Counted from the first letter of the stretch, positions 1,985 to 15,413 are shown. The stretch: 16,601 nucleotides of DNA from Clostridia bacterium (GCA_045599485.1 JAZRWA010000051.1:1-16601), one strand, 5' to 3'. Numbers and translations are program-made. The notes: generated by a model not told the origin, from the letters alone.

Positions 1985-3547
1985 TTATTGCGCTGTCCTG
2001 CGCACCGTCACGATCGCTTCCTTTTTCAAGGCGTCGTAATCTTCCACGATGATCTCATAGTCAAAGGCCGCGTGATTGTTCATATACGGCGCGTTGGCAA
2101 AGGCCGCGCCATGTGTCGCCATTGAGAAGGAAGTGCCGCCAACAAACAGATCGCACGCGTTCAGATCAAAATACCCGCGGTTATTTTCCCTCGTCAGAAA
2201 GTACGGATCCTTGCCCGACCGCTTCATCGTGTGCAGATTGAACCAGAAAGCGTTATCCTCCCCCATGCTCTGCGAGGTCGCGACGCCAATGCCCATGTTG
2301 TTCAGCAGCCACAGCTGATAATAATCCGCGTTGTACAGCCGCTGCAGCCCGCGGTTATAATCCTTCAGGTCCTCCGGGGCAAACCGCGCCGCGCCGCAGC
2401 CTTCATCATCAATATAGACCATGCGCTGATCGACGTGCAGAATACGCACGCCGCCGTAGCGCGCAGGATCCTTCGCGGAGGTAAACTACAGCATATCACT
2501 GTCCCAGTGATACAGGTTATTGCCCACCTTGCCCAGCACATCCACCAGCATGTACTCATCAAAGGGCGTACCGTTCCAGCCCGCGGAAGTGGGAACCAGG
2601 ATGCAGTCCGGATACCGCGCGCTGCAGCGCAGGCGCAGCGTCACTTCATCCACGTCGGGCGTGATGACATACGGATCGACCCACCCGTACGCCAGCTTTG
2701 TCCATATGCCCAGATCGCCGCTTTCGGTATCGTGCATATCAAAGCCCAGCGGCGAATGCAGGGTATAGCCTTCAGCGTCATCCGCGTACAGGTCTCCCAC
2801 CCCGAAACGATGCCCGACCTCATGGATCGGCACATTCCAATAATACAGCGTATCTCCCGGCCAGCGCCATGGCTCCCTCACGCCGTCATCGGGCATCATC
2901 TGCGCCCGCTCCAAGCATACAAAGCCGCGGCAGGATGGATACTCGTGATCGGCATTGTTTGCCACGGTATGATAATCCATCACGCTGCATTTGCCGCCGT
3001 ACAGCGTACCAAAGCGTGAAACGCCGTCCACGGAGGGATCGTCAAACACCATGATGACCATATCGGCATAGCCGTCGCCATCGCTGTCAAAGCGGCTCAG
3101 ATCGCCCGGATACGCCTTGCGCGCCGCATCATAGATCTGCCAGTAATGATCGGAATAGGCGTTGAAATCCTTTTGCCACCGGGCTTCCATCTACCAGGAA
3201 GACATCCCCACCTCATGCACAGGCAGCAGTTCATACTGCAGATCGATCTTACCGTAGGAAGCATTCAGATAATACTGCCGCACGCTGTAGCTTTCTTTCC
3301 CGTTCATGACCTTGTCCACTTGCTGAACAAAATCGTCGTCATAGCCATAGCCGTCGGTAAAATGCACGGGAATGATCATGCAATCGATCACCCGCGCCTC
3401 ACCTGAAGTATTGATATTGGAATAATCGGCATAGAGAAAGCGGACCTTTGTTCTCGGATAATCCTCCTGTACAGCCGGCGCCTCCGCCAGCGCCGCGGAG
3501 GCAAGCAGGCACATCACCAGCAGGAGGGCGGCAAATGTTCTTTTCAT
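1985..3547 (-). CDS. Secreted HExxH zinc metallopeptidase, M6/immune-inhibitor-A-like; one frame of 520 codons with two in-frame TAG codons (3191-3193, 2486-2488)
   Basis: Track ORFs 3191..3595, 2486..3190 and 1985..2449 share one frame and are separated only by TAG. Signal peptide MKRTFAALLLVMCLLASAALA. HEVGHRFGVGDLY zinc motif in the middle piece. The 2450-2485 linker reads through as FTSAKDPARYGG. ATG at 3547 overlaps the upstream gene's stop (ATGA). True stop is TAA. Confidence 0.75.
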
Positions 3548-4305
3548 TCCGCTTTTTCCCCCGTCATCAGCCGGTCCAGCGCGCGGATGAGGCACGCCGC
3601 CGTATCGGTCACATAGGCTTCATCCCGGATGTTGTTCCGAAGCTCCACCAGCACGGCGCCCTCGGTGACGGTGGCAAACCACATGCTCATTTTGCCGCCC
3701 GCGCCGTCCGCATGCCATTTGAGGTTCAGTTCCTCCTCAAAATAGCAGGTCGCGCTTTTTGTGCCGTACACGCAGCCCAGCCAGCCGTGGATGTCGGCGG
3801 CATAGGTGGGATGGATCATCTCCACCAGATCGCGGATGCCGCATGCCTCCGCTGTGGCAAAGGGCGCTTTTCCCGTCTTGTAGCGCGCGGTGGTCTTGCG
3901 CGTCCAGCCCACAGGAAAATCACGGTTGATATCGATGCCATTGGCATTGCAGCGGCCAAAGCCGTTTTTGCTTTTGCCCTCTGCCTCGGCATCGGGGTTG
4001 GCGCAGGGAATGATGTACAGCGCAAAGGCGGGTTCGTTTTCGCTGTAATGGCGAAGCATCTCAAAGGCGATGTCGGTCAGCACACGCCCGTCATGATCGT
4101 ACTCATCCTCAAAGCCGTGCACGGCAAACACCATCAGCATGCTTTTTTCGGCGTCCTGCGGCCCCACACGGCAGCAGACCAGATCGCGCCCCTGCTGCGA
4201 GGTGCCGTACACAAAGGCTTCCCATGCCGGGGCAGGCTGCTCCTCCGCCAGACAGGCGGACAGGCAGAGCCATAAAATCAATAAAACGGCGGTCAGTTTC
4301 TTCAT
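3544..4305 (-). CDS. M14-family zinc carboxypeptidase-like lipoprotein (253 aa)
   Basis: Signal peptide with lipobox LSAC. M14-like motifs HGFEDE (HxxE), NANGIDINRDF and DIHGW. GGAGGG RBS. TGA stop overlaps the next gene's ATG. Confidence 0.8.
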   Translation of the reverse strand: MKKLTAVLLILWLCLSACLAEEQPAPAWEAFVYGTSQQGRDLVCCRVGPQDAEKSMLMVFAVHGFEDEYDHDGRVLTDIAFEMLRHYSENEPAFALYIIPCANPDAEAEGKSKNGFGRCNANGIDINRDFPVGWTRKTTARYKTGKAPFATAEACGIRDLVEMIHPTYAADIHGWLGCVYGTKSATCYFEEELNLKWHADGAGGKMSMWFATVTEGAVLVELRNNIRDEAYVTDTAACLIRALDRLMTGEKAE

Positions 4306-4340
4306 GCGCCCTCCGTAAAAATACTTGTATTCTATGTCAT

Positions 4341-4369
4341 ATTATACGCCCCCGCCGCATTTGACGCAA
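4341..4369 (-). promoter_or_regulatory. Promoter of the M14/M6 peptidase operon
   Basis: Minus strand reads TTGCGT (4364-4369), a 17-nt spacer, then TATAAT (4341-4346), about 35 nt upstream of the 4305 start. Confidence 0.6.
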
Positions 4370-4384
4370 CCGCCGCTTTGCCAT

Positions 4385-4413
4385 TTGCCTTTTGCAAAAA
4401 GCCGTGCTATAAT
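4385..4413 (+). promoter_or_regulatory. Promoter of tRNA-Leu
   Basis: TTGCCT (4385-4390), a 17-nt spacer, then extended -10 TGcTATAAT (4405-4413), 8 nt before the tRNA 5' end. Confidence 0.6.
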
Positions 4414-4421
4414 GTTTTTGT

Positions 4422-13516: not shown

Positions 13517-14347
13517 ATGCAGCCGCTTGTATCGATCATTATTCCCTCCCACAACCGTTTGGACCTGCTGCCTGCCTGCCTCAACAGCATTTACGCGCAG
13601 GACACCGCCGATCTGGGTGAGACCGAGATCATTGTGGTGGATGACAGCAGTGCGGACGGCACGTGGGATTTTTTGACCGAGGAGGCAAAAAAGCACCCCG
13701 AGCTGAAGCCCATTCATGCCGAGGTACGCAATGTTTCCAAAGCGCGCAATCTGGGTCTTGACGCTGCCCGTGGCACCTACATCCGCTTTGTGGACAGCGA
13801 TGACGAGCTACCGCCCGGCTCCATGCGCCGTCTGATCACCGCCTGCCTGGAGGGCGACAGCGCGCTGGCCATCGGCGCCTTCATCCGCCGCACGGGCAAG
13901 AGGATCACCAAGCCGCGTGTGCTCTTTAAGCAAAGCGGCACCTGGGACATGAAGCCGTTTGCGCCGCAGATGATCCGCTTCATCACCAGTTATACGGTGG
14001 GCGTGGTGTGGAACAAGCTGTTCCGCCGCGACATCATTGAGGCCCGCGGGCTACGCTTTGTGCCTGGGCTGACCTATGGCGAGGATTTTTTGTTTGTCAT
14101 GCAGTACCTGCCCGGCTGCAAGCGCGTAAGCACCGTGACGGACAGCGTATATATGTATTATTTCAATCCCAAATCGCTGACCACCGGTCAGGTCATGAGC
14201 TGTGTGACGCATCCGCTGGTCAACATCCGCTGTAAAAGGCAGCTGTTTGACGGCTACCGCGGCGCGTTTAAGGAGCTGGGGCTGTACGAGCAGCACCGCC
14301 GCCGCATTGACAGCTACATGTGGCTGGTCAACCTGTACGACAACTAA
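13517..14347 (+). CDS. Family 2 glycosyltransferase (276 aa)
   Basis: VSIIIPSHNR...IIVVDDSSADGT...ARNLGLDAARGTYIRFVDSDD is the GT2 (GT-A, DxD) signature. AAAGGAG RBS. TAA stop. Confidence 0.88.
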   Translation: MQPLVSIIIPSHNRLDLLPACLNSIYAQDTADLGETEIIVVDDSSADGTWDFLTEEAKKHPELKPIHAEVRNVSKARNLGLDAARGTYIRFVDSDDELPPGSMRRLITACLEGDSALAIGAFIRRTGKRITKPRVLFKQSGTWDMKPFAPQMIRFITSYTVGVVWNKLFRRDIIEARGLRFVPGLTYGEDFLFVMQYLPGCKRVSTVTDSVYMYYFNPKSLTTGQVMSCVTHPLVNIRCKRQLFDGYRGAFKELGLYEQHRRRIDSYMWLVNLYDN

Positions 14348-14360
14348 TGGGAGTGAATAA

Positions 14361-14402
14361 GGGGGAACCACGCTTTCCGCAGCCGGAAAGCATGGTTCCC
14401 CC
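14361..14402. repeat. REP-like palindromic element, copy A (inverted relative to B and C)
   Basis: gggggaaccacgctttcc-gcagcc-ggaaagcatggttccccc. 18-bp arms whose single non-Watson-Crick position is a G-U pair only on the minus-strand RNA. Confidence 0.6.
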
Positions 14403-14527
14403 TTTAACCCCCTCCGAGAAAGGGCAGTATAAAATTATAAAAAAGCACCTTTGCTTCGATGATAGGTGATTTTCATCGAAGCAAGGGTGTTGTTATGTGC
14501 AATAAATACTGCTTTTTCTCGGAAGGT

Positions 14528-14569
14528 TTGGAAACCATGCTTTTTGGCATCAAAAAGCGTGGTTTCCAA
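14528..14569. repeat. REP-like palindromic element, copy B
   Basis: ttggaaaccatgcttttt-ggcatc-aaaaagcgtggtttccaa. Same ACCAYGCTTT...AAAGCRTGGT core. The right arm encodes the last codons of the 14550..15413 gene and the loop holds its stop codon. Confidence 0.6.
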
Positions 14570-15413
14570 GGTCTTCGTTCGTCACCAGGTACACCGCCGC
14601 GGCGTGCAGCTTTTTGTAGTTCGCCTCCGTGCGGCGCATGCGGGAAAGCCCCATCTCCATGATGTCCAGACACGCGGACTTGTACTCCGTCTTGGCCATG
14701 GGATCCATAAAATAAAGGTACTCCTCATCCACCGCCACGCACGCCACATAGTGCGCGCCGCCGGTAAAGGGCGAGGACGAGGTGTTGGACAGCACCACCG
14801 CCATGGTGCCGTTGCCGATGCGGTTGACCCAGTCATCATCGGTCGGCGCGTCGATCATGGTGCAGGAAAGCCCAAAGTACGGGCAGATCTCCAGCAGCAT
14901 CTTCATGTTGGTGCCGCCGCCGTTGGACTTGGCGATGCGGTAACGGCTGCCCTTATCGTTGTTGCCGCAGGCATAGGAGCCCAGGATCAGCGGCAGATAG
15001 GTGCGCACGTCCTATTCGGTCTCAAGGGGCATGCGCTGCTTGCAGCTGCGGCAGTTCCACGGATTGACGGAGTGCGTGCACAGCGTAAAGCCGCCATCGC
15101 CCGCGTGATCGAGGATGCCGGTAATGTTTTCCCCCGCCAGCGCGGCAATGACGATGGAGGCGCTGGTGGGGCCGCAGCCGCCGTCACCGAAGATGCGATA
15201 GGTGGGGCTGTTGCGATACTCATACACCAGCTTGTACCACATCAGGTTTTTTTGCGCGTAAAGCATCACCTCGCCCACATAGGGCACGGTGACATAATGG
15301 CAGATGTTATCGCGGCTTTCCAGCTCCTTGCGGATCTGTTCCGCCCCCGAGGATGCCAGCGCCGGGGAGGATAAAAGCAGCATCGCCAGCAAAAGGGCAA
15401 GCAGGCGTTTCAT
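14550..15413 (-). CDS. Secreted papain-fold cysteine peptidase, C39-like (287 codons) with one in-frame TAG (15012-15014)
   Basis: ATG 15413 follows AAAGGAG. Signal peptide MKRLLALLLAMLLLSSPALA. Putative catalytic Cys motif GDGGCGPTSASIV lies upstream of the TAG and the His motif GGAHYVACVAVDEEYLYFMDP lies downstream, in the same frame (..PLETE*DVRTYLP..). TGA stop. Confidence 0.7.

Follow-up and report, generated by a model that had tools for sequence, protein, structure and literature searches.

The stretch of DNA analyzed here (the window) comprises 16,601 nucleotides from Clostridia bacterium (GCA_045599485.1, JAZRWA010000051.1:1-16601) and is essentially one whole contig of 16.6 kb (16,602 bp) from a metagenome-assembled genome (MAG) at NCBI. 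It has a GC content of ~55% and 15 annotated genes, and four of these genes are interrupted in frame by TAG codons, the decoding of which is the subject of this analysis. The genes encode an M6-like secreted metallopeptidase, the C-terminal remnant of a phage-type transcriptional regulator, a secreted protein with three DUF6273 modules and a C39-like secreted peptidase (Table 1). At all seven positions the plus strand reads CTA, giving an in-frame TAG on the minus strand, and the four open reading frames (ORFs) contain zero in-frame TAA or TGA codons and zero frameshifts. This confirms the coordinates of an original prediction, which described seven in-frame TAG codons in four otherwise intact genes. 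Its claim that domains continue across the TAG codons is also borne out by matches in Pfam and NCBIfam: three DUF6273 matches (three DUF6273 stretches, E = 1.9e-74) and Peptidase_C39_2 span them, as does the M6 model TIGR03296, the latter below the cut-off. For the M6 gene, full-length intact homologues exist. Of the four cases, the regulator is the least convincing and may be a true remnant. It had been described as sigma-like, but it matches only positions 126-188 of the 220 positions of phrog_36, i.e. the C-terminal third, it has no Pfam match and its surroundings are a degraded mobile island of low GC content.

Table 1 Coordinates of genes and in-frame TAG codons in the window, counted from its first nucleotide.
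Feature	Position	Strand	Remarks
MATE	559-1935	+	
M6-like secreted metallopeptidase	1985-3547	-	520 codons, signal peptide, HExxH; two in-frame TAGs; stop TAA
TAG, M6 codon 354	2486-2488	-	
TAG, M6 codon 119	3191-3193	-	
M14 peptidase	3544-4305	-	intact in window
tRNA-Leu(UAA)	4422-4506		
HTH antitoxin	4836-5165		in low-GC island
Gp49/HigB-like toxin	5122-5502		in low-GC island
Phage-type transcriptional regulator, C-terminal remnant	5592-5834	-	one in-frame TAG
TAG, phage-regulator remnant	5736-5738	-	
Three-module DUF6273 secreted protein	11211-13328	-	705 codons; three in-frame TAGs; stop TGA
TAG, DUF6273 codon 608	11505-11507	-	
TAG, DUF6273 codon 532	11733-11735	-	
TAG, DUF6273 codon 464	11937-11939	-	
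C39-like secreted peptidase	14550-15413	-	287 codons; one in-frame TAG; stop TGA
TAG, C39 codon 134	15012-15014	-	
PhoR-like histidine kinase, C-terminal end	16320-16601	-	continues beyond window; stop TAA

Contigs of relatives were recovered by exact-sequence and homology look-ups. They come from different samples and other assemblers (MEGAHIT, SPAdes, Logan and NCBI MAG assemblies), and the sequence examined from the focal lineage, which is Oscillospiraceae-like, amounts to ~100 kb. The window and four of these contigs (L006, L007, L009 and L010) together hold 16 in-frame TAG codons in eight genes, again with zero in-frame TAA or TGA and zero frameshifts. The trait is found in contigs of at least five samples or assemblies, and the synonymous divergence (dS) between the contigs is up to ~0.9. 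An alignment of orthologues at the TAG sites, as the original prediction had proposed, revealed conserved TAG codons in two of the genes. TAG-119 of the M6 gene is shared with the orthologue in L006 (GCA_045628485.1), which aligns to the window over 1563 nt free of indels and with 81 differences, and TAG-464 of the DUF6273 gene is shared with contig L011 (Logan SRR17543910) at ~91% nucleotide identity and is directly followed by the conserved domain end EGLPVRPALWVDL. A third M6 orthologue, in L009, has the identical length and its own TAG at codon 44; the three 1563-nt orthologues, each with TAG codons of its own, are free of frameshifts and indels. A 118-amino-acid M6 product ending just ahead of TAG-119 is present in three samples. 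In other relatives codon 119 is TGG (L009) or encodes Q (P0001), with D or E in distant homologues. TAG-354 corresponds to a Ser codon (TCG) in L006 and to a Glu codon (GAA) in L009.

Further TAG codons of the relatives lie in genes that are uninterrupted in the window or fall outside it. Codon 37 of the M14 peptidase gene is CAG (Gln) in the window (4195-4197, minus strand) and TAG in L009, and among the members of the M14 protein cluster, five that stem from other contigs are products of 198 amino acids starting after codon 37. Three internal TAG codons interrupt a STAND/TPR gene in L007. In L010, the C39 orthologue is intact, with GAA (Glu) at the TAG site of the window, and the PhoR-like histidine kinase has two in-frame TAG codons, in its PAS and HisKA domains, both at conserved Glu positions. 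The post-TAG fragment of the kinase is found in at least four distinct sequences. Use of TAG is thus not limited to secreted and accessory proteins, as had been supposed, since a conserved histidine kinase is affected too. In several samples the TAG alleles are the majority form. Because relatives from other samples and assemblers also have in-frame TAG codons, we regard them as a property of the lineage rather than as decay, and the variety of assemblers and samples makes an assembly artefact unlikely.

The interrupted genes are under purifying selection. For the M6 gene, the dN/dS ratio (ω) is 0.26 against L006 and 0.15 against L009; for the DUF6273 gene it is 0.21 against L011, and for the C39 gene 0.20 overall and 0.19 after the TAG. 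TAG-bearing genes range from 0.14 to 0.26 and their TAG-free neighbours from 0.11 to 0.16. Downstream of the shared TAG-119 of the M6 gene, ω against L006 is 0.30, and neutrality is rejected with p = 6e-6.

At gene ends, TAG is nearly absent. The 15 gene ends of the window comprise eight TGA, seven TAA and no TAG; the original prediction was right about the zero, while its count of nine TGA and nine TAA is reduced by this recount from 18 to 15. Among 58 curated gene ends of the lineage, 34 are TGA, 23 are TAA and one is TAG. The lone TAG end belongs to a truncated recombinase remnant of a mobile element and has another stop one codon later. All remaining gene calls ending in TAG stop at an internal TAG of a longer ORF. 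Control loci of similar GC content have ~20% TAG ends as called with a cruder, greedy ORF caller. Under a no-TAG model this caller picks antisense ORFs in the GC-rich DNA of the lineage and inflates TAG counts, so that its values serve as rough controls only. The end of the STAND/TPR gene in L007 (3353-3385) reads ...E TAG LKTKE TAG TRQ TGA and looks like a former TAG terminator that is now read through into an extension of 10 codons.

Local sequence does not set the TAG sites apart. Four of the seven sites in the window do have the context TAGGA noted earlier, but the context is not significant: G follows TAG in seven of 16 lineage sites, compared with 36% G-initial codons overall. The folding energy of the 63 nt downstream of the TAG sites equals that of GAG/CAG controls (p = 0.41), and neither a common stop-codon context nor a common downstream RNA structure was found among the 16 lineage TAG sites. 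For both reasons decoding looks general and not site-specific, which speaks against the programmed readthrough that had been considered. At two M6 sites the TAG is directly followed by an ATG (window 3188-3193, L009 5942-5947). Reinitiation would be possible there, but the pairing is probably a coincidence because this Met is ancestral in the M6 family. As a general mechanism reinitiation was rejected, since the M6 Met is ancestral and the other TAG sites are without a start codon.

The columns that align with TAG are rich in E, Q and D. The TAG in the kinase PAS domain aligns with E in 101 of 120 orthologues and that in the HisKA domain with E in 119 of 120. In the C39 column (codon 134) E makes up 51 of 96 residues. 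The two later DUF6273 columns are mixed, with Q 102, E 69, D 67 and K 47 at codon 532 (n = 336; Q and E in the window paralogues) and Q 81, E 58 and K 43 at codon 608 (n = 339). In a Codetta-like likelihood over nine sites, Glu scored +12.4, Asp −1.6 and Gln −5.1 nats; when the kinase was left out, Glu scored +7.2 and Gln −0.5 nats. In close relatives the residue is E for C39 and M6 codon 354, and Q for M14 (CAG), the STAND protein and, in P0001, M6 codon 119. Since the likelihood favors Glu while close relatives show both residues, UAG would most likely mean Glu, possibly Gln, and the earlier suggestion that Gln as in genetic code 15 is the simplest meaning is no longer preferred. Many Firmicutes form Gln-tRNA via a non-discriminating GluRS and GatCAB, and either residue is plausible for this reason. 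A side observation on C39 comes from a 1352-bp ENA contig of another sample (cluster members P0464 and P0465). Its C39 orthologue falls into two parts behind ...MKMLL, at the E of the remaining members (LLEICPYF), and an additional in-frame TAG probably occupies this Glu position.

In a scan of GTDB genomes, the M28 peptidase matched no more than two entries, at 93% a 2-kb contig of "Clostridia bacterium Horse_feces223" and at 57% a Faecousia MAG. A metagenome scan with a kinase alignment relied on generic kinase motifs and found mostly unrelated kinases; the only relatives were L015 to L017. L015 (OLSB01000128.1; 63% kinase identity) encodes release factor 1 (RF1) with a PVT motif (24-857, minus strand) and has a response-regulator gene that ends in TAG (8515-9399, plus strand). 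It looks like a standard-code organism and is the nearest relative with a TAG terminator, which would make the recoding lineage-specific and L015 a useful outgroup. L012 (JGI 3300027276, Ga0208297_1000285; 61% kinase identity, 62% GC) has 24 gene ends, of which 17 are TAA, seven TGA and none TAG. Its segment 4900-8367 has the order rpmE, DUF1385, prmC, NUDIX, response regulator and histidine kinase with no prfA adjoining prmC, which is a lead towards loss of RF1 and not a proof. Judged from its sequence, L012 could represent a stage in which TAG is unassigned. The Faecousia contig encodes RF2, and its 12 gene ends, none of them TAG, are too few to interpret.

Based on these findings we consider it likely that UAG is decoded as a sense codon throughout a lineage of uncultured gut Clostridia. 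The original prediction that TAG is sense rather than decay is upheld by shared TAG codons in diverged relatives, purifying selection downstream of them, additional sites that are TAG only and the near absence of TAG from ~58 gene ends. UAG would no longer be a terminator but would be translated as an ordinary, if rare, sense codon by a tRNA with the anticodon CUA. RF1 would be lost or ineffective, and TAG terminators would have been purged to TAA or TGA. Sense TAG codons could then have arisen by single-base changes from GAG, CAG, TGG or TCG at residue-tolerant sites. More tentatively, as a possibility that falls somewhat short of an even chance, we hypothesize that a gut Clostridia clade of genus level or wider has dropped UAG as terminator and lost RF1, that UAG means Glu via a tRNA(CUA), and that the 62%-GC relative is at a codon-capture stage.

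Several points weigh against sense decoding of UAG across the lineage. With ARAGORN, no tRNA(CUA) was detected in 95 sequences including the window, only ~100 kb of which belong to the lineage. Sense TAG is rare (~0.09% of codons in the lineage), and most genes are without any. No single residue emerges at the TAG sites, given that E as well as Q occurs in close relatives. Two M6 sequences that are 98.5% identical have a CAG-type Q and TGG, respectively, at codon 119; this suggests that TAG-119 is quickly replaced and may be inefficiently decoded. The sample of gene ends is modest, with ~46 unique genes and orthologues that are not independent of each other. All data are metagenomic and at the level of DNA.

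An unlikely alternative is ambiguous or conditional suppression. In this case RF1 would be retained and a suppressor tRNA, either chromosomal or from a resident TAG-recoded prophage, would compete for UAG. Terminators would have been purged since readthrough is costly, and proteins with in-frame TAG codons, for the most part accessory ones, would be expressed partially or only under certain conditions. The rarity of sense TAG, its concentration in secreted and accessory genes and the apparently fast exchange of TAG-119 for other codons in near-identical M6 sequences are compatible with suppression. An Oscillospiraceae host is known to harbor TAG-recoded "Topaz" prophages (bioRxiv 10.1101/2021.08.26.457843), and a preprint on an archaeal pyrrolysine (Pyl) code describes intermediates that retain RF1 (bioRxiv 10.1101/2024.09.30.615893). 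However, a TAG at a kinase Glu that is invariant in 119 of 120 orthologues, with the allele in at least four distinct sequences, speaks against suppression. Moreover, ω downstream of TAG codons is as low as in TAG-free genes, TAG terminators are essentially all gone, and neither a prophage nor a suppressor tRNA was found in the sequences examined.

Genome-wide decoding of UAG as Pyl, with a pylTSBCD cassette elsewhere in the genome, is quite improbable. It would produce an identical signature, as the archaeal Pyl code also combines missing TAG ends and scattered in-frame TAG codons with no local signal (bioRxiv 10.1101/2024.09.30.615893). But the TAG columns contain E, Q and D, are never mainly K, and two lie at strongly conserved Glu positions. 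The affected genes encode peptidases, DUF6273 proteins, a kinase and a STAND protein, and no pyl gene or methylamine methyltransferase was present among the loci examined. In bacteria, Pyl is reported in a few enzymes only and TAG is otherwise a stop (bioRxiv 10.1101/2024.09.30.615893).

Even less probable are ordinary pseudogenes, in which accessory genes of a host-associated lineage would decay by CAG>TAG or GAG>TAG changes and the scarcity of TAG ends would reflect sampling or composition. It is true that TAG is reached more easily than the other stops: given the codons that make up these genes, ~50% of random nonsense mutations would create TAG. The genome is also TAG-poor in all frames, and what is left of the phage regulator is a truncated gene in any case. 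Nevertheless, the probability of meeting TAG only is ~0.7-1% for seven of seven sites and falls to ~1e-4 for 13 of 13 when the independent sites of relatives are added. Mixed stops, indels and an ω near 1 would mark decay, whereas we found TAG only, no indels and an ω of 0.14-0.30; specifically, the three M6 orthologues are without indels or frameshifts, and ω downstream of shared TAG codons is 0.2-0.3. TAG alleles that are the commonest form in several samples and a single TAG among 58 gene ends do not fit decay either. Errors of sequencing or assembly, or a TAG-recoded phage contig contaminating the MAG, might be suspected for a short MAG contig of 16.6 kb but can practically be dismissed, since identical TAG codons occur in independent samples and assemblers, the TAG genes are syntenic with chromosomal MATE, M28, aldo-keto reductase, GT2, RluA and histidine kinase genes, and there is no DNA match in phage or plasmid collections.

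The remaining genes of the window encode an M28 peptidase, an aldo-keto reductase, a second MATE protein, a one-module DUF6273 protein, a GT2 glycosyltransferase and RluA. The stop codon of the M14 gene and the start codon of the M6 gene overlap as ATGA at 3544-3547, and L009 has the same overlap, which suggests translational coupling of both secreted peptidases. The two-module DUF6273 orthologue in L011 ends with ...WVDLDSGVF (1497-1553), similar to ...WVDLGSGIF of the one-module paralogue in the window (10266-10330), and the DUF6273 gene of the window runs on into a third module where the L011 orthologue ends. This suggests that modules are gained and lost via recombination among paralogues. 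Directly after tRNA-Leu(UAA), an island at 4500-6450 has a GC content of 0.46-0.48 compared with ~0.57 in its flanks, and at the corresponding tRNA-adjacent position L007 has a truncated serine-recombinase remnant. The island looks like a degraded integrated element. An exact search of IMG/VR with the tRNA-Leu gene gave no match. A TAG-recoded prophage was rejected as the source of the TAG codons, as the TAG genes lie scattered among the chromosomal genes for MATE, M28, aldo-keto reductase, GT2 and RluA, phage collections gave no DNA match and only the island at 4.5-6.4 kb has a mobile origin. L006 and L008, both from GCA_045628485.1, are very unequally diverged from the window (dS 0.13 for M6 vs 0.44 for MATE), and L006 has an additional second MATE-like gene end; this assembly may be a strain mixture, or the region may be recombinant.

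Several known systems resemble the situation described here. Gut phages with code 15, in which TAG encodes Gln (crAss-like, Lak, Topaz and Garnet phages), likewise have sense TAG codons, gene calls that are fragmented under the standard code and a gut/Firmicutes setting. In contrast to them, the genes concerned here belong to a bacterial chromosome, without phage content, TAG is far rarer, the terminators of host genes are without TAG, and the inferred residue leans towards Glu, not Gln. Bacterial UGA reassignments (code 4 in Mycoplasmatales and insect endosymbionts, code 25 in Absconditabacteria/Gracilibacteria and a recent report on Eggerthellaceae) are also lineage-wide changes from stop to sense, in which the reassigned codon is gone from gene ends and in-frame copies occur in conserved genes. 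The codon here is UAG instead, and one would expect RF1 rather than RF2 to become dispensable. The archaeal code that reads all TAG codons as Pyl (10.1101/2024.09.30.615893) shares the TAG-depleted gene ends, the scattered TAG codons, the lack of a PYLIS-like signal and graded stages among relatives. It depends on Pyl machinery, while the aligned residues here are E, Q and D and no pyl gene was seen in the loci examined. The nuclear codes of Blastocrithidia and peritrich ciliates, in which UAR encodes Glu, would give UAG an equal meaning if Glu holds, but they are eukaryotic, include UAA and have a different release-factor biology. Finally, engineered RF1-free Escherichia coli (C321.deltaA and successors; PMC11903333) has the same end state, with no UAG terminators and UAG free for a CUA tRNA. 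C321.deltaA is synthetic, and the focal lineage would be its natural counterpart.

All bacterial reassignments known at the time of the Codetta screen concerned UGA (PMC8629427), and a paper from 2026 still lists UGA cases only (PMC13462651). Our full-text literature searches found no report of a bacterial chromosomal UAG reassignment. To our knowledge, reassigned UAG has been described in phages and eukaryotes and, as Pyl, in archaea, but nowhere else. The case described here would be the first natural reassignment of the amber codon in a bacterial chromosome. As a free-living gut bacterium with UAG read as Glu or Gln, it would fill a gap, since the accepted reassignments of stop codons in bacterial chromosomes all concern UGA.

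If the reading with Glu and loss of RF1 is true, the lineage has a new natural bacterial genetic code and is the first natural RF1-free bacterium, a natural analogue of the engineered RF1-free E. coli. Its relatives at different stages, from RF1 with a TAG gene end through no TAG to sparse sense TAG, would then be intermediates on which codon-capture and ambiguous-intermediate models can be compared. The finding bears on the commonness of TAG-recoded phages in gut Firmicutes. It also has a practical side, because pipelines using translation table 11 fragment genes in these MAGs, which is visible in stored protein clusters. Lastly, the lineage may carry a natural bacterial pair of a CUA tRNA and its synthetase that would be of use in biotechnology.

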